DNA of 64,000 nt from a virus (lineage: Duplodnaviria > Caudoviricetes): the IMG/VR virus record IMGVR_UViG_3300031908_000002, positions 2,337-66,336 of that record, one strand, 5' to 3'. The notes under the pieces were generated by a model. The model saw nothing but the letters and a program-made list of their open reading frames with translations, was not told the DNA's origin and made no database searches. The position numbers were made by a program, and so were the translations under genes. Within the stretch, counting starts at the first letter, position 1, and each line of letters begins with the position of its first letter. Positions 201 through 57,619 of the stretch are shown here, in pieces.

Positions 201-778
201 TGGGAGACCGCATGGCTAAGGGAGTTTGGTTTGGAAACGGATTCATCGCGGGGGCGTTGATGATGTTGGCGGGGGCTTCGTTCTGTTGGTACTCGCCACT
301 GGCCCACTCCAGCGACAAGGTGGTTTTGTCGGCGGAGAAGGTCGAGGCGTTGGCGGATTCGACAGCCCCTGTGGTCTACACCACCCCGCCTGAAAAGGGT
401 AACTACCTGATCAACCCGAGGGACGTCCTGTCGGTGTACGACGGCGACACGTTTTTCATCCGCCTGCCGGAGTGCGCGGACAAGCTGCCGTTCCTCTGCG
501 CGAAGATGGGGGTGCGGATCATGGGGATGGACACCCCGGAACGCAAAGGACTTTGCGAATCGGAGAAGAAACAGGCGGCGCTGGCGCAGATTCAGCTTGA
601 GGTCATGCTGCGCTCTGCAAGGCGCATCGAGCTGGTGAACGTGAAAACGGAGAAGTACGGGCGTCTGCTGGGCGGTCTGATGATCGACGGGCAGGACGTG
701 GTGGAAGACATGGTGCTGTCAGGGATGGCCCGACCGTATAACGGCGGGGCTCGAAAGGGTTGGTGTACCGTGCTGTAA
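200..778 (+). CDS. Thermonuclease / SNase-like nuclease with N-terminal hydrophobic segment
   Basis: Motifs VYDGDTF, RIMGMDTPE, KYGRLL, GMARPYNGG typical of staphylococcal-nuclease fold. Confidence 0.88.
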   Translation: MGDRMAKGVWFGNGFIAGALMMLAGASFCWYSPLAHSSDKVVLSAEKVEALADSTAPVVYTTPPEKGNYLINPRDVLSVYDGDTFFIRLPECADKLPFLCAKMGVRIMGMDTPERKGLCESEKKQAALAQIQLEVMLRSARRIELVNVKTEKYGRLLGGLMIDGQDVVEDMVLSGMARPYNGGARKGWCTVL

Positions 779-810
779 AAGAAAGGCCACCCGAGGGTGG
801 CCTTTTTGTT
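777..810. terminator. Bidirectional intrinsic terminator between convergent genes
   Basis: AAAGGCCACC-CGAG-GGTGGCCTTT (782-805) flanked by A and T runs, between the stops of 200..778 and 809..3742. Confidence 0.85.
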
Positions 811-3742
811 AGGCGTTCAAATATGGCGCGGTCGGTGGGAGGAAAGCGCCGCCGTAGCGCGCCACACTCTTGGTGACCCGCACCTCGTCGATGTAGCCGA
901 TGATCCCCGCAGGCCCAGCGCTGTTGCCTCCGCCGATCTGCAACTTGCCTGTGGAGTTCTTGAACGTGACGCTGGAAGGGGTGGCGGTCGCATGCACCAC
1001 GCCGTTGATGTAGACCCGGAACACGGTGCCAGAATCCCGTTCTACACACACGTGGTACTGGGTGTTAATGGTCGGCGTCCACGCAGCCGACACGTTCGCG
1101 CTGTTGGTACCGTCCGTGGAGTACCACAGCCCGAAGTTGCCGTTCACGAACCCCATGAACCACGACTGTTGGCCACTCGATTCCCACTGCGCGACGATGG
1201 CCTGGGTGTCGGAGCCGCCGGGGAGTGTGGTGAAGTAGACATAGGCCTCAACCGTGAAAAACCCGCTGGCGAAGTCCCAATCCGCATGGTCTGCCAGAGT
1301 CCAGCCGTTGGCGGTGCTGAACTCGGACACCGCAGAGGCCGTGCCGTACTTCTTCACCGCCGTAGAGATTTGACCTGTGCCCTGCGCCGTAATCGTCTTC
1401 GGCGTGCCGGAGTTGTCGGTCGCGGTGGTCTGCCCGTTGGTGCCGTCGAAATGCACCAACAGCTTCACGCTGGAGTAGTAAGGGTCGTTGAGCGTCCAGC
1501 CCTTGGCGGTTGCGATGTCCGTGGTGCTGGATGCGAAGCCCCAGTTGGCGTTGATCGTCAACGTCTTGGCCGAGACGCTTGGCAGGTTGGTGTAAATCTC
1601 GTTCAACTCCGTAGGCCCCAGCATCTGCTGGGTGAAGTTGATGTTGACCTTGATGTTGGTCATAAGCACGCGGGAGATGCTGTAGCCCGGTGTCAGGAAC
1701 GAAGCGAAGTCGGTCACCAGCGTGCAGTTCCAGGCTGGAATTGTGTTCAGCGACAGGCAGCCGTTGAGCATGCTGTTCATGGTGGTGACTTTGGCGGTGT
1801 CAAAGGCCGGCAGGGTTCGCAGGCTACGGCAACCGGTGAACATGCTGGCCATGTTGGTGACGTTGGTCGTGACGAACAGCGGCACCGTTTCGAGCGAGTA
1901 GCACGAGTCGAACATGCTGTCCGTGCGCGTACAGTTCTGGATGTTGAACAGCGGAACGGTTGTTAGGGCCGAGCACCCTGAGAACATGTTTAGGGTGATC
2001 GTCACCGCCGTACCCGTGACGATCTCGACGTACTGCAAGGACTTGCACGCGATGAAGGTGTTCTGAAGGGATGTAGCCGCCGTGAGCGTACCCATCTTGG
2101 CCGACTTCAACGCATAGCAGTTACTGAACATGGCGAAGAAGTTCGTGACGAGCGGCGAGCTGGTCATCTCGAAGGTTTGCAGGTTAAAGCAGTTGAAGAA
2201 CATCGAATCCATGGACAGGCACACGGGCGCAGAAATTACCTGCACCGACGCCAAGGACCAGCAAGAGTTAAACATGCTGCCCATCTGCGTGACCAAGTGA
2301 GTGTCCAAGGTCGGAACGCTGATCAGACTCGTACAGCCGTTGAACATGAAGTCCATGCGCGTGCATTTGGACGTGTCATACGCAGGAATCCCCATCAGGG
2401 CAGGGCAACTGTCGAACATGCTGATCATCTGGGTGACGTTGCCAGTGTTCAACGTTGGCCCCCATTGCAGGGAGGAGCAAGTGACGAACATGCTGTTCAT
2501 GTTCGTCACGCCGGAGGTGGTCGTGATGGTCACGTCCGTCAGCGACCGGCACGTGTCAAACGTCCGGTTCATGTTGAGCAGCGCCGACGTGGTGCCCAGC
2601 AGCTCGACCCTTTGCAGGGCGTAGCAGGTGTAGAACATCTGGGTCATGTCCGTCACTGCCGTGCAGGGCGTCAACGTCGCAGTGATCAGGTTGTGACAGA
2701 GGTAGAACATCTGGGTCATGTTCGTCACTTTCACAACGTTGAACGCCGGGATCGAGATCAGCCCACGGCAGCCGTTGAACATGCTGGACATGTTCGTGAC
2801 GTTGGCGGTGTTGAACAGCGGTACCGTTTGCAGCGCCGGGCAGTTGTTGAACATTTGGGACATGTTCGTGACGCTTTGCGTGTCAAACAGGTCCACCGTG
2901 CGCAGGGATGTGCAGTCCGAGAACATGGTGTTGCAGTCGGTGAGGGATGCCAACGTACCCGTAATGCTGGCGCTGATCAGCGAGGTACAGCCGTTGAACA
3001 TGCTGGCCATGCTGGTGGTCCCGGTGGCCGCTGTGATCTCCGCCACCCTCAGCCCATACACGTTAATGAACATGAAACTGAGGTTGGTCACCGCCGTACA
3101 GTTCAGCTTGACCTTGCGCAGCGCCCACATACGAGCGCTGGAGCCAGAGTTGCCCGGATAGACGTTGGAGCCCAGCATGAGCGACGTCAGGGTGGTCGAG
3201 GCGATGTGCAAGTCCAGCCACTGCATGCTGTGCTGGGTCAGCCCTTGGTGCTCGTTCGGCTGCACGTTCAGGTTGATGTTGGTCAGGGTCTGCCCCGACT
3301 GCGGATAGACCTGAATGATGACCTGCCGGAAGCCCTCGCTGGTCAGCGTGCCGGAGCTGATCGTCGACCAGACGTAGTTGTGCTGCGCCGTCACGTTGGT
3401 GGCGTAGTCCGTTACGGTGCCATCACCCCAGTCCACGGTGTAGGCGCCGGTACACTTGATCGCCACAACGTTGGTTTGCTGGTCGTACACGCCGAACAGG
3501 CCCACCAAGCGGGTGTCGCCCGCCGTGATGGATGGCAGCGACAGCCAGTCGCCGGGGCGGGTCCACGACGGTTCCGTGTAGTTGGCCGGCTGCGACGGGC
3601 GCGGGTAGTACGCGATGGACGCGATCTTGGCGGCGTAGGTGTTGTAGGCCGCACTGCCCACGGTTACGCCCTTGCCTTCGATAGCGGCCTTGATCGCCAG
3701 TTTGATGTCGTTCAAGGCCGTCAGTTGCGTTGCGATGGTCAT
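809..3742 (-). CDS. Tail fibre/receptor-binding protein with about 20 BspA/DUF285-like 24-aa repeats and C-terminal ConA-like (LamG) lectin domain
   Basis: Repeats of type T.VTNM..MF..C.SL..VP.F; C-terminus VKLLVHFDGTNG...FTVEAYVY...YIDEVRVTKSVARY. Confidence 0.75.
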   Translation of the reverse strand: MTIATQLTALNDIKLAIKAAIEGKGVTVGSAAYNTYAAKIASIAYYPRPSQPANYTEPSWTRPGDWLSLPSITAGDTRLVGLFGVYDQQTNVVAIKCTGAYTVDWGDGTVTDYATNVTAQHNYVWSTISSGTLTSEGFRQVIIQVYPQSGQTLTNINLNVQPNEHQGLTQHSMQWLDLHIASTTLTSLMLGSNVYPGNSGSSARMWALRKVKLNCTAVTNLSFMFINVYGLRVAEITAATGTTSMASMFNGCTSLISASITGTLASLTDCNTMFSDCTSLRTVDLFDTQSVTNMSQMFNNCPALQTVPLFNTANVTNMSSMFNGCRGLISIPAFNVVKVTNMTQMFYLCHNLITATLTPCTAVTDMTQMFYTCYALQRVELLGTTSALLNMNRTFDTCRSLTDVTITTTSGVTNMNSMFVTCSSLQWGPTLNTGNVTQMISMFDSCPALMGIPAYDTSKCTRMDFMFNGCTSLISVPTLDTHLVTQMGSMFNSCWSLASVQVISAPVCLSMDSMFFNCFNLQTFEMTSSPLVTNFFAMFSNCYALKSAKMGTLTAATSLQNTFIACKSLQYVEIVTGTAVTITLNMFSGCSALTTVPLFNIQNCTRTDSMFDSCYSLETVPLFVTTNVTNMASMFTGCRSLRTLPAFDTAKVTTMNSMLNGCLSLNTIPAWNCTLVTDFASFLTPGYSISRVLMTNIKVNINFTQQMLGPTELNEIYTNLPSVSAKTLTINANWGFASSTTDIATAKGWTLNDPYYSSVKLLVHFDGTNGQTTATDNSGTPKTITAQGTGQISTAVKKYGTASAVSEFSTANGWTLADHADWDFASGFFTVEAYVYFTTLPGGSDTQAIVAQWESSGQQSWFMGFVNGNFGLWYSTDGTNSANVSAAWTPTINTQYHVCVERDSGTVFRVYINGVVHATATPSSVTFKNSTGKLQIGGGNSAGPAGIIGYIDEVRVTKSVARYGGAFLPPTAPYLNA

Positions 3743-3748
3743 GCTCGA

Positions 3749-5545
3749 TTACCCCAAGATGGCTGTGAGAGCGGAGGCGATGTAGCCCAAGGCGCTGTCC
3801 AAGTCGGCCTGGACCAATGTCGAGGCGTTCAACGTGCCGCCCACCCAGATGCTGCCCCAGTGGTTGGTCGCATCGGACGGCACGTAAGACGGAGTGCCCG
3901 GAGTGCTTGGCGCCGCGCCAGAGGCTTGGGTGAAATAGACCATGGACGAGGGGCTGTGCGCCGCGCTGAAGTTCGCTACGCCCAGCACGAAGCCCGCCCA
4001 AATCACCGTGCCGGCGGTCAGGGTCAGGGCGGTGGACAGCATCACGGTGTTGAGGCCCTTGGTAATGCCCGTGACCTGTGGACCCAGCGCCAAGCGGGTG
4101 GAGATCTCGCCTTGGTTGTCGGAATAGATCGCCGGGTTGACCACGGAAGACCCGGAGGCTGCCGTGGCCCAGAAATGAATCCGGTCAACCACACAATCCT
4201 GCTGGATCAGGATCGAGCGCCCGCCGAAATACCCGTTGGCGAAGGTGGCTGAGGAAGCCGGGGCGAAGTCCGGCACGCCGAACTGCTTGCCCGCGATGAC
4301 GGTGGTGGCGGTGGCCCAGGCCTCGGCGCCGGACACCATCGTCAGAATCTGCCCATCGGTGCCTTTGGCCAACCGGGTCGCCGCGCCGCCCGAACCACCA
4401 ACGATCAAGTCGCCTGCGGTGGTCATTGGGTTGGTGAAGCCGCCCGAAGGTGCTGCCCACGCCTCTGCACCGGACACCATGGTCAGCACTTGGCCGTCAG
4501 TACCCTTGGCGAGACGGGTAGCCGCGCCCGACGCGCCGCCGACGATCAAGTCACCAGCGGTGGTCATCGGGTTGGTGACCTTGGCGTTCAACGCGGTTTG
4601 CAAATCCGTTTGATCGGAAAGGTCACCGGAAACGTGCCCCCAAAGGGCTTTTTCGTTTGCGTCTTGAAACCATAGATACAAGACGGCGTTGTCGGAAGGG
4701 TTACCCATAAGGGACGAGAATTGTACGTCGGTGCTCGGGGTTACCCAGCTCGGCAGGCCTTCTGTGAGTACGAGGGACTGGCCATCGGTGCCCTTCGGCA
4801 GGCGAGTAGCTGCGCCAGCGGTGCCGCCATAGATCAGGTCGCCCGAGGCGGTCATCACGTTGGTGAAGCTGGTCCCGTCAGCACCATCAGCACCATCAGC
4901 ACCGGCAGGGCCGTCCGCACCGGCAGGGCCTGCGAGCAGGCTCAAGGCGATCAGGTTCGTCCAGCTCCCAGCGCCGACATAGCGCCACTGGATGTGTGTG
5001 CTGTTCACCTGCAACTCGACGGCCACGCCGTTGGTCCCGTTCGTACCGTTGGACCCAGCAGGGCCTACCAGCTCGCTCAGCAGCTTGAGGTTGATCCACG
5101 TGGAGTCGCCCACGTAGCGCCACTGAATCCACGTGCTGGTGACTTGGAACTCAACCTGCTTGCCATTGGTGCCGTTGGTCCCGGCAGGGCCGGTGAGGGT
5201 GGCCAAGGAGACGAGTGCCGTCCACGCGGTATCACCCACGAAGCGCCAATTCAGGTAACCCCCGCTGACGCCGAACTCGACTTCACGCCCGTCCACGCCA
5301 TCGGTGCCGTCCGTACCGTCTGCACCGTCTGCACCGGCAGGGCCGGTGATCTCGTCGAGGTCGACAACATCAGTCCACGTGGTATCGCCTTCCAGTTGGT
5401 GCTGGATTTTGTGGCCGTTCTTGCGCAGCTTGATCGGACGGCCATCGGCGCCGCGAATACCACCCGCCGCAATCGGAACGGTGGACGCATGCTTACCCGG
5501 CAGCACCAGCACCTTGCCCTTCGGGTTGAAGACGATTAAGGCCAT
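3749..5545 (-). CDS. Collagen-like tail fibre protein with internal repeats
   Basis: GxxGxx stretches; four E(F/L).V....(I/L).WR(Y/F)VG..W..L...L.GPAG units; three (N)(P/V)MT.(A/S)GDLI.GG..GAATRL.KGTDGQ units. Confidence 0.7.
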   Translation of the reverse strand: MALIVFNPKGKVLVLPGKHASTVPIAAGGIRGADGRPIKLRKNGHKIQHQLEGDTTWTDVVDLDEITGPAGADGADGTDGTDGVDGREVEFGVSGGYLNWRFVGDTAWTALVSLATLTGPAGTNGTNGKQVEFQVTSTWIQWRYVGDSTWINLKLLSELVGPAGSNGTNGTNGVAVELQVNSTHIQWRYVGAGSWTNLIALSLLAGPAGADGPAGADGADGADGTSFTNVMTASGDLIYGGTAGAATRLPKGTDGQSLVLTEGLPSWVTPSTDVQFSSLMGNPSDNAVLYLWFQDANEKALWGHVSGDLSDQTDLQTALNAKVTNPMTTAGDLIVGGASGAATRLAKGTDGQVLTMVSGAEAWAAPSGGFTNPMTTAGDLIVGGSGGAATRLAKGTDGQILTMVSGAEAWATATTVIAGKQFGVPDFAPASSATFANGYFGGRSILIQQDCVVDRIHFWATAASGSSVVNPAIYSDNQGEISTRLALGPQVTGITKGLNTVMLSTALTLTAGTVIWAGFVLGVANFSAAHSPSSMVYFTQASGAAPSTPGTPSYVPSDATNHWGSIWVGGTLNASTLVQADLDSALGYIASALTAILG

Positions 5546-6763: not shown

Positions 6764-7258
6764 ATGGCTTTGCCAATGAATATAGCAGGCGAGTGGTTCG
6801 GGCAGTTGGAGGCGATCAGCCGCGCCGACTCGCGGGGGCGACGGACTTTCTGGCTGTTCCGTTGCGCCTGTGGCGTGGAAAAGGAGATCGACCTGAGCAA
6901 CGTCAAAAGTGGGAGGGTGATCAGTTGTGGCTGCTACAAGCGCGGGATGGCTGCTGCGCTCCTGACCGGTAAGAGGCTCAAGCGCTGGGGCAAGGAACCG
7001 CCGGCTCCTGCCCCGGTCGCGGTTCCGGCTGTGCGGCTGGTGGCAGTTCCGGCGGCGGTGGCTTTCGTGGAGCCAGAACCGGCGGACTATGTACGCCCGC
7101 TGGAACTGGACTATGAGGACGATATGGTCTCGTTCGATGAGTTCGCGGAACGCTGGGGCGTTGACCCGCAGAGGCTGTTCGAGGTCATGCGCGACTACAA
7201 ACAGTACCGGCAAAAGCCCGACGCGGCGGCGCTGGTGATCATCAAAAAGCGGGTTTAG
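6764..7258 (+). CDS. Homing-endonuclease-like N-terminal Zn-ribbon protein, no visible HNH catalytic domain
   Basis: GEWFGQLEAI...WLFRCACG...VKSGRVISCGC; oriented opposite to neighbours; start ATG 6764 chosen. Confidence 0.55.
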   Translation: MALPMNIAGEWFGQLEAISRADSRGRRTFWLFRCACGVEKEIDLSNVKSGRVISCGCYKRGMAAALLTGKRLKRWGKEPPAPAPVAVPAVRLVAVPAAVAFVEPEPADYVRPLELDYEDDMVSFDEFAERWGVDPQRLFEVMRDYKQYRQKPDAAALVIIKKRV

Positions 7259-7647
7259 GCCCGCGCCCTGCGATTAAGGATCGGGTACCACGCGCCGTCC
7301 GGGCGCAGGGCGGCGATCCAGTGGTAGGGCAGGGACTCCCGGCGACACACCCACGCACAGCGACTGTCCATGGCCCAGCCCTGCCGCACGCACAACAGGT
7401 GCAACTGGTCATCCTCATGGCGGCAGAACACCAAGTCGCTGTCGAGACCGGCCAGGGTCTTGAGCAAGGCGCGGCAGGTGAGGGCGAATTGCTCGGCCTC
7501 CTTGTTGATCTCTCCCGGCGACCAGAACTCTTCATAGCCCTTGGGGTGGCGGGTCATCGCGGCGATTTGCCCGGTCTGGGCAAGGTCGAGGACTTCTTGC
7601 AGGCGGTCGATCAATTCAATCTGGGAGGTCGGGGCACGAACGGACAT
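7255..7647 (-). CDS. Hypothetical protein (130 aa)
   Basis: ATG at 7647 preceded by AAGGAG SD; palindrome copy immediately upstream. Confidence 0.7.
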   Translation of the reverse strand: MSVRAPTSQIELIDRLQEVLDLAQTGQIAAMTRHPKGYEEFWSPGEINKEAEQFALTCRALLKTLAGLDSDLVFCRHEDDQLHLLCVRQGWAMDSRCAWVCRRESLPYHWIAALRPDGAWYPILNRRARA

Positions 7648-7725
7648 GGCGGGGCTCCTTCGCAAAGGACTTTGCAAATTGAGTCTAGGCGCAGTTCGTG
7701 GGTAGTGGCAGGGGGCCAGATAACA

Positions 7726-8591: not shown

Positions 8592-9230
8592 CTATTCGTG
8601 GACGACGCTCAGGGACTCGTAGACGATCCAGCCGCCTTCGGTGTCCGGGCCTACGTTGTCGATGACGTAAGCGCCGGCCTTGAAGTAGAACGGCGTCGGC
8701 AGCCAGCTCGGATGCACCGGGCACTCGAATTTCTGGCCGTTGAGCCAGATGACCAGTGTGCCGCCTTGGGTGACTTGGATGCGGAAGGTCGCCCTCGGGG
8801 TCAGGGTGGTGATCGGCTGGCGGATCACGGCAGGGGAGCCGCTGTCCTCAGCATGGACCCGTACCTCGGCGCGCAGCTCGTTGCCCATTTGCAGCAACTT
8901 GACGAAGGGCGCGCTGGCGCCGAAAGCGTGGACTTGGGCGAAGATCACCTTCATCGAGCTCGGCACCCGGCGGATCACGGCCACCCCGGTCAGGCTACTG
9001 CTCTTGAAATCGGCAGGGCGCCAGTTGAACAGCTCGGCGGTGTCACGCTTGGTCTCGCGCAGCTCGGTGCGCGGGGAGGAGCTACTGCCGGAGGTGCCGC
9101 TGGTGACCGGGCACCAGAAGTTCCAGTAGCCGTCCGGGTCCTGCCAGTGCAGGTTGCAGGGCGGGGCGATGATCTCGCCCTGCTCGTAGTCGTCGCCAGC
9201 GGCGGTGATGCGGTTGAAGTAGGGCTGCAT
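8592..9230 (-). CDS. Polysaccharide lyase family 7 (alginate lyase-like)
   Basis: PRTELRE, AQVH (QIH-like) and YFKAGAY, the three conserved PL7 blocks. Confidence 0.85.
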   Translation of the reverse strand: MQPYFNRITAAGDDYEQGEIIAPPCNLHWQDPDGYWNFWCPVTSGTSGSSSSPRTELRETKRDTAELFNWRPADFKSSSLTGVAVIRRVPSSMKVIFAQVHAFGASAPFVKLLQMGNELRAEVRVHAEDSGSPAVIRQPITTLTPRATFRIQVTQGGTLVIWLNGQKFECPVHPSWLPTPFYFKAGAYVIDNVGPDTEGGWIVYESLSVVHE

Positions 9231-9236: not shown

Positions 9237-9431
9237 TTACTCCGAGTGCTCGGTTTCACGCTCCCGCAGGATGCGCTGGTAGATTTCTTCGCGGTGGATC
9301 GGCACGTTGGCCTTGGCGTGGCAGCCGAGGCGGACCTGCTGGCCGGACACGCCAATGATGGTGACGGTGACCTGATTGTCGCCTTCGCCAAGGATGAGGG
9401 TTTCGTTGATTTTGCGGGTGAGTACGAGCAT
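9237..9431 (-). CDS. csrA: Carbon storage regulator CsrA/RsmA homolog
   Basis: MLVLTRK.NE.L.LG...[17 protein letters not shown]...[12 protein letters not shown]. Confidence 0.95.
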
Positions 9432-9456: not shown

Positions 9457-9981
9457 GGTGGCCGGGGGCCAATGGCCCAGCCCCGCCGGGGTGATCTGCC
9501 CCATGGTTGGAATGGGCACCCCGGACGGGCCGGTACCCTAAAGTGAAGGGGGTCTCTTTAGGGGTGCGTGGAGGTTACTAGGGGCGGGTCGAGGTGTACA
9601 CATGGGATTTGCGGTATCGGACGAATGGTTAGGGGGTCTGTCCGCCTGGGTCCGGTGCCGTCCGTCGGTAAAAAGTGTGGTGGGGGTGTACTTGGCACAC
9701 TTTAAGCAAGGCATTTATCCTATGTGGACACCTTGTAGCACGTCACTGCCCCATGCCTGCCGCACTTCTATATGCCTGCCGTCCGCCGTCCGCTAGACCA
9801 TGCCCCGCCGTGTTACAATGGGCTTGTGTACAATGCGACCAACGGTCACGCCTTGCCTTGCACACTTTGCGAACTCGCATAGACTCTCAGTAGGCCAATG
9901 GATGGCTAGATGAGAATGAGAATCATTCTTGTTTACTCGCAAAGGGCTTTGCGAACCTTCTTACCTATCGGAGTCTTCATC

Positions 9982-11067
9982 ATGACCGCACAAGCTAGCA
10001 CCAACGCCAAGACCAACGGCACTACCCTTGCCACTGGCGCCAAGATCAGCAAGTCCGCCAAGCTCACTAAAGCCGAAGCCGAGCACAAGGCGCTGATCGA
10101 AAAAGGTTCAACCCTCATTGCAGACGCGGCATGGTCTGCCGGTTCCGGTGAATACAATTTGACCGGGCGCATTCGTGAAGCCTTGTCGCTGGTAGCTGCC
10201 GATAGTGTGGCGGTTATGTCTGGCGCCTTCGCAATCCTTGGCGACAAGGCTAAGCCTGATCCGATCCCCGCCGGGGCTGGCGCAGACGTCCGCACTGCAA
10301 TGGAAAAGGAGGCCAACGCCAAGCGGGAACAATGGTGGAAGGCTGGCAACCGTGTTGCCACTATCTGCCGCCAAGCTCGTGACTCTATGCCGTTGGATCA
10401 GCGGCCTGTCGTATCCATCAAGCTGGATAAGTCCGAGGGTTCCGCCGTTGTAACCGTTATTCCTGCCGGTACAAGCCGGGAGGATGTCGCCAAGGCGCTG
10501 GATCACGACAAAAAAGCGCTGGCACAAGTGGTCAAAAAACTCGACAAGGAGGACGCCGAACGGGCGGAAATTGTCGCCAAGGCTGCCGGCCTGCCATCCC
10601 CTAAAGCCGAAGCCGAAGCGCGCGCCAAGGCCGAAGCCGAAGCCAAGGAGGCCGCTGATTTGGCTAAGGGCATGATCACCGTAAACGGCAAGGCCTTTGC
10701 TGATCTGCCGGTCATCGTCATCGCTGCCGCGTTGTCTACCCTGTCGAGTAAGTCCCTTACCGACCTTTGCGGCATGTTGACCCGTCAGGCCGAAAGGAAC
10801 GCCAAGGCCGAAGCCAAGCAAGCCGAGCGGGAAGCCGCGAAGGCCGCTAAGGTTCCATCCGCCAAGGCTAAGACCGGCAAGGGGGCTGCCAAGGCGCCAA
10901 ACGCCAAGCCAACGCCTGCCAGCGCTGGCAATGCCCAACGCGCCAGCAAGTCCGCTGCCGCTGCCGTCAAGGATGTGACTAAACCGAGCGCTGCCGACAT
11001 GCTGGACCCTGCCAAGGCTGGCGTCACCGTGACCCCATCAGACGCCAGCATGTCCGCCAGCGCCTAA
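9982..11067 (+). CDS. Ala/Lys-rich protein, first gene of rightward block
   Basis: ATG 9982 after GGAG; KAEAE repeats and basic low-complexity C-terminus. Confidence 0.75.
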   Translation: MTAQASTNAKTNGTTLATGAKISKSAKLTKAEAEHKALIEKGSTLIADAAWSAGSGEYNLTGRIREALSLVAADSVAVMSGAFAILGDKAKPDPIPAGAGADVRTAMEKEANAKREQWWKAGNRVATICRQARDSMPLDQRPVVSIKLDKSEGSAVVTVIPAGTSREDVAKALDHDKKALAQVVKKLDKEDAERAEIVAKAAGLPSPKAEAEARAKAEAEAKEAADLAKGMITVNGKAFADLPVIVIAAALSTLSSKSLTDLCGMLTRQAERNAKAEAKQAEREAAKAAKVPSAKAKTGKGAAKAPNAKPTPASAGNAQRASKSAAAAVKDVTKPSAADMLDPAKAGVTVTPSDASMSASA

Positions 11068-11075
11068 ACCGACCC

Positions 11076-11098
11076 GGCCCCATGGACGGGGCCATTTT
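11076..11098 (+). terminator. Weak terminator-like hairpin
   Basis: GGCCCC-ATGGAC-GGGGCC followed by ATTTTC. Confidence 0.4.
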
Positions 11099-11113
11099 CA
11101 AGGAGTGACTATC

Positions 11114-11242
11114 ATGCGTGCCGCCTTTGCTTTGTTGTTCCCCCTGATCCTTTGCGCTCTCGTTGGCTGGACTATCGTTCTGCCCGCCACTGAGGCTATC
11201 GGTCACATATCCAAGGCCTTGGCAGTCGCATTGCCAAGGTAA
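11114..11242 (+). CDS. 42-aa small membrane protein (not in ORF track)
   Basis: AAGGAG SD; MRAAFALLFPLILCALVGWTIVLPATEAIGHISKALAVALPR. Confidence 0.6.
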   Translation: MRAAFALLFPLILCALVGWTIVLPATEAIGHISKALAVALPR

Positions 11243-11247
11243 GGCGC

Positions 11248-11290
11248 CAAACGACAAAGCCCCGGCCCCCTGCCGGGGCTTTGTCGTTTG
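11248..11290. terminator. Perfect 19-bp inverted repeat (terminator-like)
   Basis: CAAACGACAAAGCCCCGGC-CCCCT-GCCGGGGCTTTGTCGTTTG just after the 11242 stop. Confidence 0.7.
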
Positions 11291-12189
11291 TGGCTTTCCA
11301 GTTCCCCGGCCCCGTCAGGGGGCCACCCACCCCGGCCTTCGCAAAGGGCTTTGCGAAGGCGGCGTCATGTAGCAGGTGCGCGCACCTCACGCCAGTGCCT
11401 GGGATTTTCGCAAAGGGCTTTGCGAAGGGCTGCCATATGGCAGGAGGAAGCCGACAAAGGGAAAGGGCTCTCAGTGGGCCATAGCGCGAGGAAAGCGCCC
11501 CCCGGCGACGTTAAACGCGAAGGCGCCCCCGGTGAACTCATTAGGGAAGTTTCAGGGGCGCCCCGGCCCAGACCCACAGGAGCCAGCGCAGCACAGCCAG
11601 CAGGTGCCGCAGAGGCTCTCACACTCGCAAAGGGCTTTGCGAAGGCCTTCAGGGAGGCAAAAGGACTATCGCCTTCTCTTCTACTACTTACTTTCTTATA
11701 TTATTTGTATTTAAGTATCTAGTAGTAGTGTTTCAAGTACACGGTTTTTTGCAAAAGTGCTCGAAAGAACTTCCAAACTTGTGGAGGAAGCAGGCAGCGT
11801 GCGTGTCTGACGCTCTCGCAACCCATGCTTTTCCCCTGCTCCTTCCACCCAAGCCGACCCCCCGGAACAGGCCCCAAGCCACAAGGAATAAGGCTCTCAG
11901 CCCGATCAACCATGACACCGTGTACAGAGCACCGACTATCTATAATCGAACGAATATGTACATAGCACCACGACATGGAAAAAGTCTGTCAACCCCCCAA
12001 ACAGGAGAATTTTGTAACAGTAAAGAGACTTGTGTACTAGGCCCACACTGTGCCTCGAAAAATCCGTGTACCTATACGGTCAAAACTGTACAAAGCACGG
12101 TTACTTGTACCATGCGGCGATAAAATTTTTCCAAAATGATACCCAATTTTTACTTGACAGCCCTAATAACCCAGTCCCACAGCCACACC

Positions 12190-12238
12190 GTGTACAATGC
12201 CAGTGCCTATTCCGACGAGTGGTACTGGCATTGTACAC
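12190..12238. repeat. 15-bp perfect inverted repeat containing TGTACA
   Basis: GTGTACAATGCCAGT-N19-ACTGGCATTGTACAC. Confidence 0.85.
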
Positions 12239-12447
12239 AAAGACCCGTTACGATGCCGCTCGACCCCAAAAAGGGCCGAGGTCGGTGGTCGTCGTCGCTC
12301 CTGAAAGGGGGTTTTGCGGCAGAAAGTGACCCGTCTTTGTGTGCAATATCGGTCAATCCGCCCCTGTCGGACCTTGCCCACCGTCTATTCCCCGGCCAAC
12401 GCCAAGCAGCGGGAGCCATGGCGAGGGGTAAAGCAGGGGCGAATTGA

Positions 12448-13138
12448 TCCCTTACTTCCTGTTAAACGCATCACTTACATCTTGATCCAGCGCGTCCCTT
12501 ACTTCTTGTCAAAGCCCCTAGATACGTGGCTTTGCGGGAAACCAGCTAAGAACGCGACGAATGCCCCCTGCCGTAGCTAGGCGAAGTAGGGGGAGGGGGT
12601 CAGGGGCATCCCTTACTTCCTGTTAGGGTCCGCCCCTTACATCCTGTTAGGGTCCGTCCCTTACTTCTTGTTACGAGCTATCCCTTACATCTTGATCCAC
12701 CGCATCACTTACATCTTGTCAAAGCCGCTTCGCAAAGGGCTTTGCGAAGAAACAGGCAATCCCTTACATCCTGATCCAACCCTGATCCTTCAACGAGGAA
12801 CCGAACCATGAACAACGCCATCGCCATGATGTGGGCCTACTACGGTCACATCGCTGAACTGCTGTACCAATGGATTGAACGCCAGTTTCCCGGCTATCCG
12901 GCGCTGGTGTTGCTCGCCCCGATGTGGCCGATGATCCTCACCGTGGTCATCGTCCTGATCGCCAACGAAGTGAGCCACCGCCTGATGCTGCGGCGCCTGC
13001 GTAGGGACATCGCAGCCCGCCGTGCCCGTGCCATACAGGAACGGGAAGCGGCCAGCCGAGTCCCTGCGGATCGTCATTGACTACCCCCGGTAGCCATCCC
13101 TTACATCTTGTTCCACCCGCTATCCCGTACATCTTGTT
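12448..13138. repeat. Direct-repeat array, 11 copies of TC(C/A)CTTAC(A/T)TC(C/T)TG(T/A)(T/C)
   Basis: Units at 12448, 12471, 12495, 12609, 12633, 12657, 12681, 12705 (five at exact 24-bp period), 12760, 13097, 13123. Confidence 0.9.
12808..13080 (+). CDS. Hypothetical membrane protein (90 aa)
   Basis: GAGGA SD, hydrophobic central helix. Confidence 0.7.
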   Translation: MNNAIAMMWAYYGHIAELLYQWIERQFPGYPALVLLAPMWPMILTVVIVLIANEVSHRLMLRRLRRDIAARRARAIQEREAASRVPADRH

Positions 13139-13216
13139 CCACCCCCGGCTCGCAAAGCCCTTTGCGAAGTGAAGCGACAAGCGAGCCCACCTTCATCAAA
13201 GTAGGAGCAACACACC

Positions 13217-13840: not shown

Positions 13841-13890
13841 AGCCCTTCGCAGCGTGCTCGCAAAGCACTTTGCGAGGGGCTTTTGTGTTT
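13841..13890 (+). terminator. Long terminator hairpin mutually exclusive with a palindrome copy
   Basis: 13841-13858 pairs with 13864-13881, followed by TTTGTGTTT; palindrome 13857-13876 overlaps it. Confidence 0.55.
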
Positions 13891-14565: not shown

Positions 14566-14645
14566 CCACTAAAAGACGAAGGGTTCGCAAAGGGCTTTGC
14601 GAACCTGTTCCCCGAAGTTAGCAACACGATTGAAGGAGATCGACT

Positions 14646-15408: not shown

Positions 15409-15469
15409 CCTAACCCCTAACCCCAGCCCTTCGCAAAGTCACTTTGCGAACTATGAAGGAATCAATCCG

Positions 15470-18769: not shown

Positions 18770-18809
18770 CCTTCGCAAAGCCACTTTGCGAACTAAGAAG
18801 GAGACAACC

Positions 18810-20831: not shown

Positions 20832-20888
20832 CCAACACCTTCGCAAAGCCACTTTGCGAAGGATTCCTTCATTCAGGAGAGCAACAAG

Positions 20889-24616: not shown

Positions 24617-24669
24617 CCCACCGGCTCGCAAAGTGACTTTGCGAGCCCCCTTCATCAAGGAGTACAGAA

Positions 24670-30611: not shown

Positions 30612-30642
30612 TCACAAAGAACTTTGCGAAAGGAATACCCCG

Positions 30643-36086: not shown

Positions 36087-36237
36087 TGTGCCTGTATGAC
36101 ACGTCACCAGATAATTGGGACCATCTGCTCGACATTGGCTTTTTGGCTATTGTCGTTGCAATGGCGCTGCTGCTTGAGAAGCGCCATAAACGCCCCTGAT
36201 CTCGCAAAGTCCTTTGCGAACAACCGAGGAAACATAG

Positions 36238-46231: not shown

Positions 46232-46262
46232 GCCCGGTGGGAAACCACCGGGCCTTTCTTTC
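46232..46262 (+). terminator. Intrinsic terminator
   Basis: GCCCGGTGG-GAAA-CCACCGGGC-CTTTCTTT. Confidence 0.8.
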
Positions 46263-46287
46263 CGCACGCCTGCACAAAGGTAGAGCC

Positions 46288-49200
46288 ATGCTTAAAATTC
46301 CTGGGATCGTCCTGCTCGACATCAAGGGACTGTTGATCCACTCGTACTTTCGCGGCAAAGACCCTGACGCCGTTCTCGACGCCAGCGGCACCCCAGTCAA
46401 CACCTCCGGTTTCGGCCTCCGTACCTTCATTGATGGGTACCTGCGGGGCATCCTCCAAGAGTTCGCCCCCCTGAACATCATTGCAGTTTGGGATGGTGGT
46501 ACGGACTATCGAACGTCGATCTTCCCCAACTACAAGGTCAAGCGGAAAGCCCGCGAGAAGAACGAAGCGCAGGAAGTCCAACTCGCTGACCTGTACAAGA
46601 AGGCGAAGGTGCTGCTGGCCTACATCGGCGCGCACAACGTCATCGTGGCAGGCACCGAAGCGGACGACGTGATCGGCGCGCTGGTCAAGCGGGTCAAGGG
46701 TGTACCGAAGCTGGTCTACACCGTTGACGGCGACCTCGTGCAACTGACCGCCGACGACTGCGTGGTTTTGGTCGGCGGCGAAGTGACCACCGAGTTCGAG
46801 GGCCATCCGCACCACCTGATTCGTCTGTACAAGTCGCTGGTGGGTGACACCTCCGACGAGTACGGCGGCGTGCCGCAGATCGGGCCAAAGGCGTTCCAGT
46901 TCCTGCTGGACACCTACGAGCTGGACGGGATGCAGGAGCTGGAAGCCTGTGTACGGGCCAACGACTTCAGCTATCTCAAGATGGCGGTTGAAGCCACCAA
47001 CTGCAAAGTGTTGAACAAGCTGTACGAAAACCGGGGCATCTGGCGGACCATGTACCTGCTGGCTGACCTCCACCCTGAGTTGTGTCACCGCGCTACGGCC
47101 AAAGAGATCATCCGGCCTGAGTGGTATGTCCGCATGGCGGACGCTGAGCGCGTGAAGCAAGTGCTGCATTCAGCAGGCGCGGACTACATGTTCGACCTGT
47201 TCGAGCCGTTCCTGCCCCGCTTCGCCCTGATCGAAGAAGAGGATGTCCCTGCTACTCTCGATCACTTTCGCAAAGCACTTTGCGAAACCCCCTACGTTCC
47301 TTTCGACTATGAAACCTATGACGCCCTCGGCAAGGACTGGAAGCCAGCCCTACCGGACGCCGCCAAAGGTGACTACGTTGACGTGCTCTCGCAGCGCCTG
47401 ACAGGCGGCTCGTTCTGCTATGGAGCAAACCTCCAGCACACCGTTTACGTCCCTGTTCAACACAAGGACACCGCGAATGCCCCAAGGGATACCCTCGCCC
47501 AGTTTCTGACGTTCATCGAAGAAGCTGAGCTGGACTACGTGGCGCACAACGCCCGCTTCGAGGAACAACTGTCGAAGCAGGACCTGAACTTCCAACTGGA
47601 AGGGCCTATCTGTACCCAGGTCCTTGCCAGCTACGTCGATGAAAACCAGTTCGCCGGCCTGAAGGACCAGACCGCCCTGTACTTCAGCTACGAGCAAACC
47701 CGCTTCAAAGACCTGTTGGAGCAGCACGGCGCCAAGGACATGCGCGACCTGACCGGTGAGCAGGTGCTGGCCTACGGCTGTGACGACTCCTATGTCTCCG
47801 GTCGCCTGTTCATGCTCCAGTACCTGACCCTCTGCCTTGAAGAGCAGTGGGACTTCGCCTACTACCGTGACCGTTTCACCTGTCACCCATTCAACCGGTC
47901 GTTTGAAACCGGCGTGATGATTGACTACGAAGAGATGGAGCGCCTGAAAGCGGCGGACCAGATCACCATCGACACCAACATGCTGCGCATCCGCGAGCTG
48001 CTGTCCGAGAACTGCCGTCAGCAGAATCCGGCAGGGGCGATGGAGCTCAAGCGTGCCGAGGGCGAGGCGCAGATTCGCCTGCACATGTCCAAGGAACTGA
48101 ACCGGGCGCAGGCTTCGGCCAAGCTGGCTGAGTCGGTGATTCGCTGGACCGAGGCCTCGGTGTACGTGCCGTTCACGTCCACGCACCGCCCTGAAGAGTT
48201 CATGCCGACCGCCAAGGGCTTCAGCCGCTGCGCCGAACTGGTGGGGATCAAGACCCCACTGGAGAAGCTGAGCGCTGCCGGCCTGACCGAGTGGCTGATC
48301 AGCATCAAGGCTGACCTGACCGCCGAGGGCGTAGACCCGCGTGCTGACAAGCTGGTCACCCTGTTTGCCGAGTGCGGCATGCAGGAGTTCAAGGAGCGGG
48401 CTGGTTCTGCCTTCAACGCGCTGAAGCAGTACGTCGAGGCCAACATCCTGCACGAGAGCGGCAAGGTGATCGAGTCAGGCTGCGAGCTGAACTTCGGTTC
48501 GGCCAAGCAAATGACCGAGATGCTTTACTGCATGCTGGCCTTGCCGGTACGCATCCGCACCTTCCCTGACCGTGGTTCGCAGCGCGACAAGCTGGGCCTG
48601 GAAGGTGCGCCAAGCACCAACGAAGAGGCGGTGATGGCTGCGCTGGCAGAGGACTGCCCTGAAGGTGACTGGCGCCGTGAGCTTTTGCAGAAGTTCCTTG
48701 AGGTCAAGGAATGCCAGACCCGCTTCTCCCTGTACTACAAGAAGTACCCGTTCTGGAAACACCCACGGGACGGCGCGGTTCACCCCGGCACTCGCAACTG
48801 CGGCACGATCACCCGTCGCCCTGCCGGTGCCAACCCGAACATGCTGGCCGTGTCCAAGGGTCCGCTGCGTGGTATCTACATCCCGCGCTTCCCGAGCCAC
48901 GTGTCGGTATCGCTCGACTTCTCCGGTGAAGAGCTGCGCATCACTGGCTCCGAAGCGAACGACCCGGTTCTGATTGAGGCCTACACAGGCCTGCCGAACT
49001 ACATCGACGAAGACGGCATGACTCGCGCCAACTTCCGCGACATCCACGCCATGACCGGCTGCACCTTCGCCAGTCACGTGCTGGAGCAGGAGCTGGGCAA
49101 GCGCATCCTCGACGAGCTGATCTGGAGCGAAACCGGCACGCTGGACTACGAGCTGTTCTGCAACCTGCTGGACCGCAAGAACCCGGTGTACGAACGCTTC

Positions 49201-49857
49201 GAGGTGGTTGGCGACAAGTTGCAGAAGACCGTCGTCAAGGTCAGGAAAATGGCCAAGACGGTAAACTTCCTGATCATCTATGGCGGTCAGGCGTTCTCCA
49301 TGGGCATGAAGCTGGGCATCCCTGAGCGGGCCGCGCAGAAGATCATCGACGGTGTGTTCGCCGGTTACCCGCGCCTTGGTGCGTGGCAGCAGGAGACCAT
49401 CGCAGAAGGTCGGACGCAGGGGTACATCACCACGTCCTACGGCACTCGCAAGCACTGCGACGTGAACATTCTCAGCCGGGAAGGCAGCCTGCGGGCACGC
49501 GCTGAGCGGCAGACGGTGAACCACAAGATTCAAGGGACGGCGGCGGACATCCTGAAGGTCGTGATGACCAACGCGCACCACACCCGCCTGTACGAAGAAA
49601 CCCGGTCGGTGCTGTACGCCCCGGTTTATGACGAGCTGACCAACTCGGTGCCAATCGACAATGTGTTCGAGTTCGTCGAGCGTGCGCAGGACCTGATGAA
49701 CATCACGCCTCCAGGCCACAAGATTCCGATGCTGGCAGAGGTGTCCATCGGCAGGAACTGGCACGAGGTTGCGGCCAACGAACTGCACGACCGGCCTTCT
49801 GAGAAGAAGATCGAGGCGCTGTTCGACACTTGGTACGCAGAGGGGTGGCGGCGATGA
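46288..49857 (+). CDS. polA: Family A DNA polymerase with 5'-3' and 3'-5' exonuclease domains
   Basis: EADDVIG, GDTSDEYGGVPQIGPK (FEN); FDYET, HNARFE, YGCDD (exo); DFSGEELR, AKTVNFLIIYG, VYDE (pol motifs A/B/C). Confidence 0.92.
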   Translation: MLKIPGIVLLDIKGLLIHSYFRGKDPDAVLDASGTPVNTSGFGLRTFIDGYLRGILQEFAPLNIIAVWDGGTDYRTSIFPNYKVKRKAREKNEAQEVQLADLYKKAKVLLAYIGAHNVIVAGTEADDVIGALVKRVKGVPKLVYTVDGDLVQLTADDCVVLVGGEVTTEFEGHPHHLIRLYKSLVGDTSDEYGGVPQIGPKAFQFLLDTYELDGMQELEACVRANDFSYLKMAVEATNCKVLNKLYENRGIWRTMYLLADLHPELCHRATAKEIIRPEWYVRMADAERVKQVLHSAGADYMFDLFEPFLPRFALIEEEDVPATLDHFRKALCETPYVPFDYETYDALGKDWKPALPDAAKGDYVDVLSQRLTGGSFCYGANLQHTVYVPVQHKDTANAPRDTLAQFLTFIEEAELDYVAHNARFEEQLSKQDLNFQLEGPICTQVLASYVDENQFAGLKDQTALYFSYEQTRFKDLLEQHGAKDMRDLTGEQVLAYGCDDSYVSGRLFMLQYLTLCLEEQWDFAYYRDRFTCHPFNRSFETGVMIDYEEMERLKAADQITIDTNMLRIRELLSENCRQQNPAGAMELKRAEGEAQIRLHMSKELNRAQASAKLAESVIRWTEASVYVPFTSTHRPEEFMPTAKGFSRCAELVGIKTPLEKLSAAGLTEWLISIKADLTAEGVDPRADKLVTLFAECGMQEFKERAGSAFNALKQYVEANILHESGKVIESGCELNFGSAKQMTEMLYCMLALPVRIRTFPDRGSQRDKLGLEGAPSTNEEAVMAALAEDCPEGDWRRELLQKFLEVKECQTRFSLYYKKYPFWKHPRDGAVHPGTRNCGTITRRPAGANPNMLAVSKGPLRGIYIPRFPSHVSVSLDFSGEELRITGSEANDPVLIEAYTGLPNYIDEDGMTRANFRDIHAMTGCTFASHVLEQELGKRILDELIWSETGTLDYELFCNLLDRKNPVYERFEVVGDKLQKTVVKVRKMAKTVNFLIIYGGQAFSMGMKLGIPERAAQKIIDGVFAGYPRLGAWQQETIAEGRTQGYITTSYGTRKHCDVNILSREGSLRARAERQTVNHKIQGTAADILKVVMTNAHHTRLYEETRSVLYAPVYDELTNSVPIDNVFEFVERAQDLMNITPPGHKIPMLAEVSIGRNWHEVAANELHDRPSEKKIEALFDTWYAEGWRR

Positions 49858-51434: not shown

Positions 51435-51944
51435 ATGTTCGAGTTCCTGCTGTCGTTGTTCCGCAAGAAGAAGAGTAAGCGCGATCTCGCAAAGGACTTT
51501 GCGAATGAAACGTCGGAACCGGTCTGGCCAAGGGAGGTTAGGCGGCCACAAATGCCACCTGTGAGGAATCCGAGGGCGGCGACACCACCGCCACCGCCGA
51601 AGTTTTCGTCAGCACCGCCACCACCGAGGTCAGCGTCGTCAAGTCCCAGGCCTGCGGATCGCAGCGGGCGCGACGACTACCTGATGAACCCGGCTCACCC
51701 GTTGAGCCCGTTGAACCCGATGAATCAGCCGGACACCCGCAGGGACGAACCGGACTGCGCGCCAGTTCGCTCCCACAGCACGCACCACAGTACGTCGAGG
51801 TCTGACGACGATTACACGCCTTCTCGCTCCCACAGCTCTTGCAGTTCCAGCAGCTACAGCAGCTACGGCGGCGACAGCAGTTCCAGCAGCAGTTCGAGTT
51901 GCGACAGCAGCTCCAGCAGCAGCTCCAGCAGTTCGTGTGATTGA
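51435..51944 (+). CDS. Pro-rich protein with Ser-rich tail, intragenic palindrome
   Basis: AAGGAG SD; ends ...GGDSSSSSSSSCDSSSSSSSSSSCD. Confidence 0.7.
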   Translation: MFEFLLSLFRKKKSKRDLAKDFANETSEPVWPREVRRPQMPPVRNPRAATPPPPPKFSSAPPPPRSASSSPRPADRSGRDDYLMNPAHPLSPLNPMNQPDTRRDEPDCAPVRSHSTHHSTSRSDDDYTPSRSHSSCSSSSYSSYGGDSSSSSSSSCDSSSSSSSSSSCD

Positions 51945-57193: not shown

Positions 57194-57525
57194 CGTCTCC
57201 CCCTCGGCTCCAGAGCCTTGTTCACCACTGCCTGCTGAAGCTGGAGGTCACGAATCTTGCTGTCCAGCTTCTCGATTTCCTGACGCAGACTGTCACGCGA
57301 GGCGTAGTCCTTCGCCAATGCTGCCAGCACCAGCGATTGCTCCACCTGCTTGTCTTTGATCGTCACCAGCTCAGCGCTGGTGGTTTTCATGTGCGCCTCG
57401 ATCAGCGGGGCTTGGGTGGCGATGTCCTTTACCGTTCCCAAGAAGCCCAGCAGGAGGGTGGCGGCGACGGTCGTGGAAACAGCCGTGATCGAGCTGATTA
57501 CGGTTCCCTTCGATTCCGTTGCCAT
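57190..57525 (-). CDS. Membrane-anchored coiled-coil protein (lysis-cassette-like)
   Basis: One N-terminal TM helix then coiled coil; directly upstream of putative holin. Confidence 0.55.
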   Translation of the reverse strand: MATESKGTVISSITAVSTTVAATLLLGFLGTVKDIATQAPLIEAHMKTTSAELVTIKDKQVEQSLVLAALAKDYASRDSLRQEIEKLDSKIRDLQLQQAVVNKALEPRGRR

Positions 57526-57567
57526 ATGTCCCCCTTGAGGTGTCGTCCACCTTCGTTATTCCGGGCT

Positions 57568-57576
57568 ATTATAGCA
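57568..57576 (-). promoter_or_regulatory. Extended -10 promoter TGcTATAAT
   Basis: Perfect TGnTATAAT on minus strand about 43 nt upstream of ATG 57525. Confidence 0.6.
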
Positions 57577-57619
57577 CTGGCGTACCGCCACCACCTTCGC
57601 AAAGTCCTTTGCGAAAACC

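Follow-up and report, generated by a model that had tools for sequence, protein, structure and literature searches.

The 64,000-nucleotide stretch of DNA analysed here, called the window throughout, comprises bases 2337-66336 of a 66,336-b IMG/VR contig (G000) from an uncultured soil phage, and it carries a family of short inverted repeats of the form CGCAAAG-N1-3-CTTTGCG that is the subject of this study. The contig is classed as linear, with an estimated completeness of 81%, and the GC content of the window is about 60%. The + strand between 9.9 and 56.5 kb carries many small early genes and then a replication module, which encodes primase, an SNF2-type helicase, PolA fused to a 5'-3' exonuclease, a Dda-like helicase and an SbcCD-like nuclease. 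Tail, baseplate and fibre genes lie on the - strand at both window ends. Because complete relatives of 82-84 kb encode a 2204-aa tape measure protein, we assign the genome to a large siphovirus-type phage of roughly 80-90 kb. The sequence occurs in DNA runs of several studies of soil and one of sediment. Vibrio phages, whose PolA is 34% identical, are the closest among cultured phages, and a megablast search with 48 kb of the window gave zero matches to cultured phages. A search for tyrosine integrases (PF00589), in which the control genomes all scored, detected none in the contig and none in four relatives, of which three are complete.

A pattern search of the window returned 26 exact copies of the repeat, against an expectation of 0.00 from 100 dinucleotide-preserving shuffles, together with three one-mismatch variants (7661, 30613 and 44886). 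A further exact copy beyond the window (G000:746-760) brings the contig total to 27 exact copies and 3 variants. The spacer is 1 nt long in two of the window copies, 2 nt in 19 (16 exact copies and the 3 variants) and 3 nt in eight. GG spacers cluster at 9.9-14.6 kb (with CC at 13151), every 3-nt spacer falls at 15.4-29.1 kb, and the regions 0.8-7.6 kb and 57.7-64 kb are free of copies. A preliminary description of this DNA had reported the same 29 copies, spacer counts, spacer clusters and empty regions, had proposed the comparison with shuffled sequence, and had quoted a set of flank extensions, all of which are present in the sequence. Its term "genome-wide" overstates the distribution: copies are spread over the window, but 25 of the 30 lie within the rightward early/middle/replication block (9.9-56.5 kb), and only four fall in the roughly 19 kb of late-gene DNA. 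This bias toward early and middle genes does not fit a role in DNA entry or genome organisation, which was also suggested there.

The consensus is longer than the core. Among the 30 copies, position -1 is T in 27 and position +1 is A in all 30, with a pyrimidine at -2 in 26 and a purine at +2 in every copy. The full unit is YT-CGCAAAG-N1-3-CTTTGCG-AR, built from the 9-bp half-site YTCGCAAAG. Isolated half-sites outside the palindromes occur at chance level (3 and 8), and therefore enrichment is limited to the paired form. The site is perfectly palindromic and its spacers show no strand bias. With spacers of 1-3 nt, the centres of the half-sites are separated by 9-11 bp, roughly one turn of the helix.

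PolA homologues delimit a family of uncultured phages, in which three relatives bear the motif at positions that match those of the window. The first is an 89-kb JGI contig (loci L293, L170 and L166), which we compared over window positions 3-41 kb; it shows approximately 87% nucleotide identity there and has 22 copies. The second (L167/L168) is about 75% identical at the nucleotide level, and the third (L125) about 88% identical over the replication genes. Positional conservation, which the preliminary description had named as a check, is evident in all three. In the JGI contig, 15 of the 17 alignable window sites are kept with no more than one mismatch; of the two losses, site 20842 is missing as a clean ~30-nt indel flanked by CCTT, and the variant at 30613 has decayed further. 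Across 20 orthologous pairs, 3 of 280 arm positions have changed, versus 95 of 620 (15%) in the 20 nt on either side (p = 1e-16). These pairs were picked on presence of the motif in both genomes, and the 15/17 retention implies that the resulting bias is small. Within genes, 2 of 52 third codon positions in the arms have changed, compared with 165 of 587 (28%) in nearby coding sequence (p = 8e-6). The spacer behaves differently, having changed in 11 of the 20 pairs, which include nearly all of the intergenic ones, and even its length shifts between orthologous sites (3 versus 2 nt at 15432, 18774 and 25901; 3, 1 and 2 nt at 29127).

Thus, the arms are held by sequence under strong purifying constraint and the centre is free. 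The constraint on the arms implies a reader that checks the letters of the stem, and a generic hairpin is improbable because 14-16 letters are identical in 26 paralogues and their orthologues. Two earlier proposals are supported by these comparisons: that the core is recognised by sequence, since the arms exceed both flanks and synonymous sites in conservation in three relatives, and that the element is not a rigid dimer operator, since the spacer is unconstrained at orthologous sites, length included. From these results, we conclude that the copies are lineage-specific cis-acting signals of one family that are read by sequence.

The family is limited to a narrow clade that has close motif-free relatives. 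Five IMG/VR genomes with ~60% PolA identity (G001-G005, three of them complete) contain zero copies, even with a relaxed pattern, as do five partial Logan contigs with 60-70% PolA identity and two contigs that encode a 33% homologue of an early protein. The motif-free relatives have no alternative repeated hairpin family, and their density of perfect hairpins (0.5-1.1/kb) equals the non-motif background of the window (0.66/kb). Scans of viral contigs and of bacterial genomes gave only single motif matches among the matches listed, in unrelated contigs and in many unrelated bacterial groups, respectively. One motif-free genome, G002, has a 14-bp palindrome of its own, CGCCACATGTGGCG, with seven exact sites and one variant at 662-4393 and 82146-83311; all of these sites are close to the ends of the contig, and the two ends are repeats of each other.

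We next considered where the copies lie with respect to genes. According to a hand-checked gene map, 19 of the 29 copies are non-coding, although non-coding DNA makes up only about 10% of the window. At + strand junctions between 13 and 36 kb, a copy begins 4-27 nt past the stop codon and ends 14-61 nt (mostly 17-30 nt) ahead of the next start, and the median junction gap is 56.5 nt with a copy versus 8.5 nt without one. The other ten copies are intragenic (542, 16988, 21233, 27342, 33346, 37316, 41445, 44886, 47269 and 51488) and use two of the three reading frames. The copy at 47269 in polA arose by substitution in a variable linker, with no insertion or deletion. Three of the non-coding copies occupy a stretch past a strong terminator-like hairpin (~11250-11295), which has a 16-bp stem and a T-run and ends the first small rightward operon (9982-11243); these copies lie ahead of an AT-rich, promoter-like region. 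The same arrangement is found in the JGI contig, in which the hairpin is conserved at L170:410-450 and is likewise followed by three copies and an AT-rich stretch. This AT-rich stretch could be an origin or an unwinding element.

Promoter-like sequences do not coincide with the copies. A scan for sigma-70-like promoters gave two hits in 20 kb (4.1 expected), neither of them at a copy, and the 40-60 nt gaps in which copies sit leave no space for a promoter. Extended -10-like words (TGTACAAT and TGTTACAAT) and other words containing GTGTAC cluster in the non-coding control regions at 9805-9840 and 11900-12260. The clusters are probably early promoters, and the scan misses them because it demands a -35 element.

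Pairing between the flanks exceeds that in flank-shuffled controls (summed longest Watson-Crick runs of 72 versus 52.5, p = 0.00025), and the covariation score over 58 copies from four genomes is 0.125 versus 0.089, with 1 of 500 shuffles scoring as high. Pairing is seen in 53-60% of copies at positions ±2 to ±4 and falls to background beyond them. The covarying outer stems of the preliminary description are therefore real but modest, extending only to about ±2 to ±4 in roughly half of the copies. Orthologous sites show two-sided changes as well: C:G at ±2 of 25901 in the window is T:A in L167:174, and G:C is replaced by A:T at ±3 of 27342. RNA hairpins are predicted to form within the surrounding sequence, with energies from -7.5 to -18.7 kcal/mol. 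Three C>T variants of the arms (7661, 44886 and L166:17880) give U:G pairs in the sense RNA, and two genomes share the one at 7661; by contrast, the sites of the two A:C variants are decaying in a relative. This pattern of arm variants is a weak hint that favours RNA.

The kind of element has a published counterpart. Cluster O mycobacteriophages carry a 17-bp repeat, TGTTCGG-NNN-CCGAACA, with 34 copies and 3 one-mismatch copies in Corndog, and its function was left unexplained (Cresawn et al. 2015, PMC4351075). Both families have invariant 7+7 bp inverted arms around a short variable centre, with about 30 copies and a few one-mismatch variants that are denser in one part of the genome, about one third intragenic and not at promoters. 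The Cluster O repeat is absent from the host and from other phages, and it too belongs to a phage without integrase (PMC4351075). The two are unrelated in sequence and lineage, and the hosts probably differ; the present phage is a 60% GC soil phage with PolA and a gene with an alginate-lyase domain. Moreover, the Cluster O spacer is fixed at 3 bp, whereas the present one is 1-3 nt long and shifts between orthologous sites, and the present family has some outer-stem covariation and a majority of its intergenic copies in very tight stop-to-start gaps. The preliminary description recognised no described element here, which is true of the sequence but not of the kind. In the literature, the motif letters matched only primer coincidences, and a search for subsequent work on what the Cluster O repeat does found none.

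A folded form of the site is favoured because the centre is free and variable in length, the stem can be extended, and the copies are placed from stop to start in early and middle operons. We tentatively propose that the motif is read as an RNA stem-loop on early/middle transcripts, where it would provide boundary, processing or protection signals, and we give this reading a probability of roughly 0.4. We infer that RNA is the active form and that the reader is a protein, and the same holds for what the site does. In this model, the long rightward early/middle transcripts would carry stem-loops of 8-12 bp directly past a stop codon and directly ahead of the next ribosome-binding site. A trans-acting factor, probably encoded by the phage lineage itself, would recognise the stem by its letters, together with the conserved A-R step at the stem's 3' base, and would be indifferent to the loop. 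Each site would then punctuate the polycistronic RNA through cleavage, 3'-end protection or attenuation at cistron boundaries, much like the RNase III sites of T7 and the repeat hairpins recognised by Cas6 enzymes, and the intragenic copies would be additional sites in long genes that lack intergenic gaps.

Several observations weigh against the RNA stem-loop. Ten copies are intragenic, including those in the primase, helicase and PolA genes, and are conserved at synonymous sites; this conservation is explained more simply by a site at the DNA level, because ribosomes would unfold an RNA site. The three copies past the strong intrinsic terminator lie in non-coding DNA and are conserved in the relative. 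RNA stems are uncommonly read in a sequence-specific manner, and searches with Pfam (78 proteins) and PHROGs (31 proteins) found no lineage-specific RNase or RNA-binding candidate. In sense-strand outer stems, G:U pairs are not in excess over A:C, and therefore the outer stems do not favour RNA over DNA. Finally, relatives at ~60-70% PolA identity manage without such hairpins or a substitute family.

The strongest competitor, which we consider nearly as likely, is a network of duplex-DNA operators in which a dimeric and somewhat flexible lineage protein binds the 9-bp half-sites and acts on the early/middle block. Early shut-off could, for example, be achieved by a stoperator-like block to elongation, as has been proposed for the Cluster O repeat. 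An operator accounts well for arms that are invariant in 26 of 29 copies and constrained at synonymous sites, for a unit that is symmetric out to the Y/R at ±2, and for the retention of the one third of copies that are intragenic. The lack of a strand-specific G:U signal and the spacing of half-site centres by about one helical turn (9-11 bp) are also expected of duplex DNA, as is the clustering of copies past the terminator in a non-coding control region by promoter-like, AT-rich DNA, and the closest published analogue was read in this way by its authors (PMC4351075). However, spacer length varies among copies and between orthologous sites, which is unusual for dimeric operators, and covariation between the two flanks exceeds that given by column composition. 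The sites do not fall at promoter-like sequences, the recognisable helix-turn-helix (HTH) and winged HTH (wHTH) proteins are common to motif-free relatives, and with no integrase found in the contig or in three complete relatives there is no evident lysogeny to silence. The preliminary description had preferred a hairpin or cruciform to a dimer operator; the free spacer and the outer-stem covariation agree with that preference, but a flexible dimer on duplex DNA is still compatible with the data.

A bolder version of hairpin recognition seems unlikely to us. Here, a private code would have one protein read an 8-bp stem by sequence, whatever its loop, at some 30 positions, where it would cut, protect or insulate the cistrons of a 45-kb early/middle transcript or else act on single-stranded DNA hairpins, with sites maintained even in the primase, helicase and polymerase genes at a cost in codon choice. 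If this were true, the family would represent a new type of Cas6-like or RNase-III-like punctuation, and the same principle might explain the Cluster O repeat.

We also considered the possibility that the hairpin forms in single-stranded DNA unwound during replication or recombination, for instance as a priming, loading or nicking site. Such a signal would explain how the arms can be invariant, since proteins can read the sequence of a B-form stem, and yet the loop is free, the stems can be extended, some copies are intragenic and the strands are symmetric. Moreover, copies flank the AT-rich stretch that is a possible origin, and the phage encodes primase, helicases, PolA and an SbcCD-like nuclease. 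Nevertheless, we regard this explanation as improbable. Relatives with 57-65% identical primase and PolA lack both the motif and any other hairpin family, the structural-gene regions are sparse in copies (4 in ~19 kb) though they are also replicated, and Pfam identified no HUH or Y1-type enzyme.

A selfish or neutral repeat, spread by short-patch gene conversion, template switching or insertion and tolerated mainly between genes, would require neither a reader nor a function for the phage. Neighbouring copies do share spacers (GG at 9.9-14.6 kb, CCA at 17-21 kb) that are unlike those of their orthologues in the relative, which suggests conversion from copy to copy; in addition, a clean ~30-nt indel with CCTT on its flanks accounts for the presence or absence of site 20842, and the family is confined to a narrow clade. 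This explanation is a long shot, given that arms of 7-9 nt are very short for homologous exchange and that the intragenic copies were made by in-place substitution and persist across 25% nucleotide divergence. No transposase-like gene was found with Pfam, and the gene-content differences between relatives lie mostly away from copies. There are four such differences with respect to the 87%-identical JGI contig, and only one abuts a copy: an HNH endonuclease gene (L166:4439-4924), which the window lacks, separates the palindrome from the orthologue of 24221-24616.

Ordinary intrinsic terminators or generic mRNA-stabilising hairpins without a sequence-specific reader are very improbable: the intercistronic placement, the stable stems and one copy with a U-run suit them, but a sense-strand U-run occurs at only 1 of 29 copies, and such hairpins need not preserve 14-16 identical letters in 26 copies and their orthologues, nor conserve intragenic copies. 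The one copy in question, at 13859, provides the stem of a terminator-like hairpin whose U-run is confined to the sense strand; two others among the 29 copies match a terminator context in antisense only. The orthologue of 13859 at L170:2784 has a clean 14-bp stem and a U-run and is a proper terminator built on the motif. The window has ~11 extra bases here (13841-13876 versus L170:2776-2807), consisting of a partial duplicate of the left arm (CTTCGCAGCGTGCT) that the relative lacks.

Several other candidates were rejected. The motif does not correspond to N4-type hairpin promoters, as no virion RNA polymerase was seen and the largest gene in the complete relatives encodes the 2204-aa tape measure protein, and its spacing is unfit for sigma-54 or sigma-70 promoters. 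It is not a CsrA target, since few copies have GGA in the loop and motif-free relatives also possess CsrA; the window itself encodes a CsrA homologue on the - strand at 9237-9431 (Pfam E = 1.9e-18). Chi-like sites were dismissed because isolated half-sites are not enriched, and a CRISPR-repeat mimic because there were no motif arrays among the genome matches listed. Rfam gave no family match anywhere in the window.

The preliminary description had put forward several binders of the motif, and none of them fared well. Orthologues of the HTH protein at 40567 and of both wHTH proteins exist in motif-free relatives, so that these are poor candidates unless their specificity has changed. The Ala/Lys-rich first early protein (9982-11067) has no family or fold match that would suggest sequence-specific binding; it is absent from G001-G004, and the L166 and L167 loci compared do not cover its position. 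Proteins kept in L166 and L167 and absent from G001-G004 include an HU-like protein with shortened arms (31256-31480), a conserved 70-aa Cys/His-rich protein (34133-34345) and several small proteins of unknown function. These, the first early protein and the small proteins of unknown function encoded at 26.4-35.5 kb are weak candidates for the reader. The HU-like protein is the sole nucleic-acid-related hit among the proteins absent from G001-G004, and a Bac_DNA_binding gene is also present on a contig of a more distant relative. Overall, the search for a reader (78 proteins by Pfam, 31 by PHROGs, 3 by PDB sequence search and the first early protein against the ESM Atlas), which covers the 81%-complete contig and half of the best relative, yielded no candidate tied to the motif.

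Other known systems resemble the family in part. Stoperators of Cluster A phages (L5, Bxb1) are dispersed, near-identical short sites that are read by one phage protein (PMC4351075). Like the present sites, they occur by the dozen within transcription units, often in short gaps between genes and sometimes inside genes, and are lineage-specific; the present sites differ in being palindromic and in having a variable spacer, and no integrase was found in the contig or the complete relatives. Stoperators are asymmetric, oriented with transcription, and serve prophage silencing by the repressor of a temperate phage. The PeSL cassettes of T4-type phages are ~100-bp composites with a sigma-70 promoter, at which recombination shuffles genes (Arbiol et al. 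2010, PMC2839356). They too are repeated between small early genes with a stem-loop between stop codon and Shine-Dalgarno sequence, but the present element has no promoter-like sequence, is 16-25 nt long, occurs also within genes, and is mostly not the site of gene gain or loss. The RNase III sites of T7 early mRNA are intercistronic stem-loops that are longer, have internal loops and are not identical to one another, and Cas6 reads the stem sequence and 3' base of the CRISPR repeat while largely disregarding the loop. The resemblance to both is mechanistic only, with no Cas6-like or RNase gene recognised in the phage. Repetitive extragenic palindromic (REP) elements are host-genome families tied to RAYT transposases. 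REP elements and REPINs share with the present copies the form of short, intergenic, multi-copy palindromes that make hairpins past genes, but the bacterial matches to our motif were single and in unrelated groups among those listed, and the 78 proteins gave no Y1_Tnp/HUH hit. The family is thus not a stoperator, a PeSL, a terminator, an N4-type promoter or an Rfam family, nor, as far as tested, a REP element.

Lineage-private, letter-perfect phage palindromes have been described in detail once, for Cluster O in 2015, and were left unexplained. In the present family, natural variation narrows the kinds of reader that are possible, as the arms are selected even at synonymous sites and the loop is free, and a narrow clade with close motif-free relatives means that comparison of gene content should name the reader once complete genomes of that clade are available. 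A protein specific for the stem of an RNA or DNA hairpin would constitute a new phage regulatory principle and would offer synthetic biology a compact, orthogonal tag-and-reader pair. A flexible operator protein would extend stoperator-like control to a lineage in which no integrase was found.

The individual copies are as follows, exact unless stated otherwise. The leftmost (542-557, spacer GA) lies within the + strand open reading frame (ORF) 212-778, which is SNase-like. A one-mismatch variant at 7661-7676 (last G>A) is 13 nt upstream of the start of the - strand gene 7255-7647; it reads U:G in the - strand sense RNA, and the same variant is found at L293:6121. The GG copy at 9938-9953 is 28 nt ahead of the first rightward gene (9982-11067). 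The three GG copies past the terminator are at 11340-11355, with a stem extended by 5 bp, at 11409-11424, and at 11626-11641, adjoining the AT-rich region. The next GG copy (12731-12746) is within an array of 16-mer repeats, 61 nt ahead of gene 12808. At 13151-13166, an intergenic copy with spacer CC is 50 nt ahead of gene 13217 (orthologue L170:2111, spacer CA), and the terminator-like copy at 13859-13874 is intergenic with spacer CA and is followed by the T-run. The copy at 14586-14601 (GG, stem extended by 4 bp) is 20 nt past a stop and 44 nt ahead of a start.

All copies with 3-nt spacers follow. Those at 15432-15448 (TCA, intergenic) and 18774-18790 (CCA, 4 nt past a stop and 19 nt ahead of a start) have orthologues with 2-nt spacers at L170:4441 and L170:7977. 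Between them, the CCA copy at 16988-17004 is within gene 16857-17300 and is retained at L170:5996. The intergenic copy at 20842-20858 (CCA, stem extended by 4 bp) is the one missing from the 87%-identical relative. At 21233-21249, the repeat (CAA; CAG in L166:1206) overlaps the final codons of gene 20889-21254. Intergenic copies with stems extended by 4 bp are found at 24627-24643 (TGA; CCA in L166:4936), which is followed by a CCTTCA-Shine-Dalgarno leader, and at 25901-25917 (TCC; 2 nt in L167:174). The last of the group, at 29127-29143 (CTG), is also intergenic, with spacers of 1 nt in L166:9961 and 2 nt in L167:3720. Interspersed among these are an intergenic copy with spacer AA (23628-23643) and one with spacer A within gene 27036-27722 (27342-27356), at which complementarity resumes past one mismatch and which is retained in L166 and L167.

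Further right, the one-mismatch variant at 30613-30628 (CACAAAG arm) is 1 nt past a stop and 14 nt ahead of a start; L167:5233 has the same variant, and the site has decayed further in L166. The copy at 33346-33360 (spacer A), within gene 33223-33675, is retained in L166 and L167. At 36203-36218, a copy with spacer TC (CA in L166:16773) is 19 nt ahead of gene 36238, and the copy at 37316-37331 (GA), within gene 36561-37412, corresponds to the C>T (U:G) variant at L166:17880. The replication genes contain the copies at 41445-41460 (TC, primase gene 40866-43760), at 44886-44901 (one-mismatch variant with a TGCAAAG arm, U:G in the sense RNA, within the SNF2-type helicase gene 43735-45273; exact in L125:1745) and at 47269-47284 (CA, variable linker of the PolA gene 46237-49857; TC in L125:4125). 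The copy at 51488-51503 (GA) is near the 5' end of ORF 51435-51944, past the Dda-like helicase gene, and the last, at 57598-57613 (TC), is between - strand genes, 6 nt past the stop of 57620-58237.

Other repeated sequences occur around the copies. A leader of the form CCTTCA-N2-4-(A)AGGAG recurs 5-9 nt ahead of start codons (20866, 21260, 24649, 25923, 36541 and others) and is often fused directly to the palindrome. Pairing is possible between its CCTT and AAGG in the Shine-Dalgarno sequence, and CAAGGAG is similar to a CsrA site. The 16-mer array comprises about ten units (core CYTTACWTCYTG) at 12448-13140, upstream of gene 12808, and a single unit is found 6 kb away in a late-gene leader at 6699. 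On the minus strand, the array contains CAGGATG-like words that resemble CsrA-binding motifs, and the phage has a CsrA homologue. The 87%-identical relative has different repeats at this position.

A low-complexity, Ala/Lys-coding stretch in the first early gene (10600-10650) attracts very high read depth from unrelated contigs in 4 of 4 runs, which is a mapping artefact and not a copy-number signal. Further genes of the phage encode an alginate-lyase-domain protein, an M15 peptidase, RadC, an antirestriction protein, TerB and the HU-like protein. The orthologue of 8592-9230 (L293:6889-7527) has an alginate-lyase domain, an Alginate_lyase2 match is also found among the window proteins, and a relative encodes two MvaT-like proteins (L124:91-867). 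Together, these genes hint at a Pseudomonas-type, alginate-producing host.

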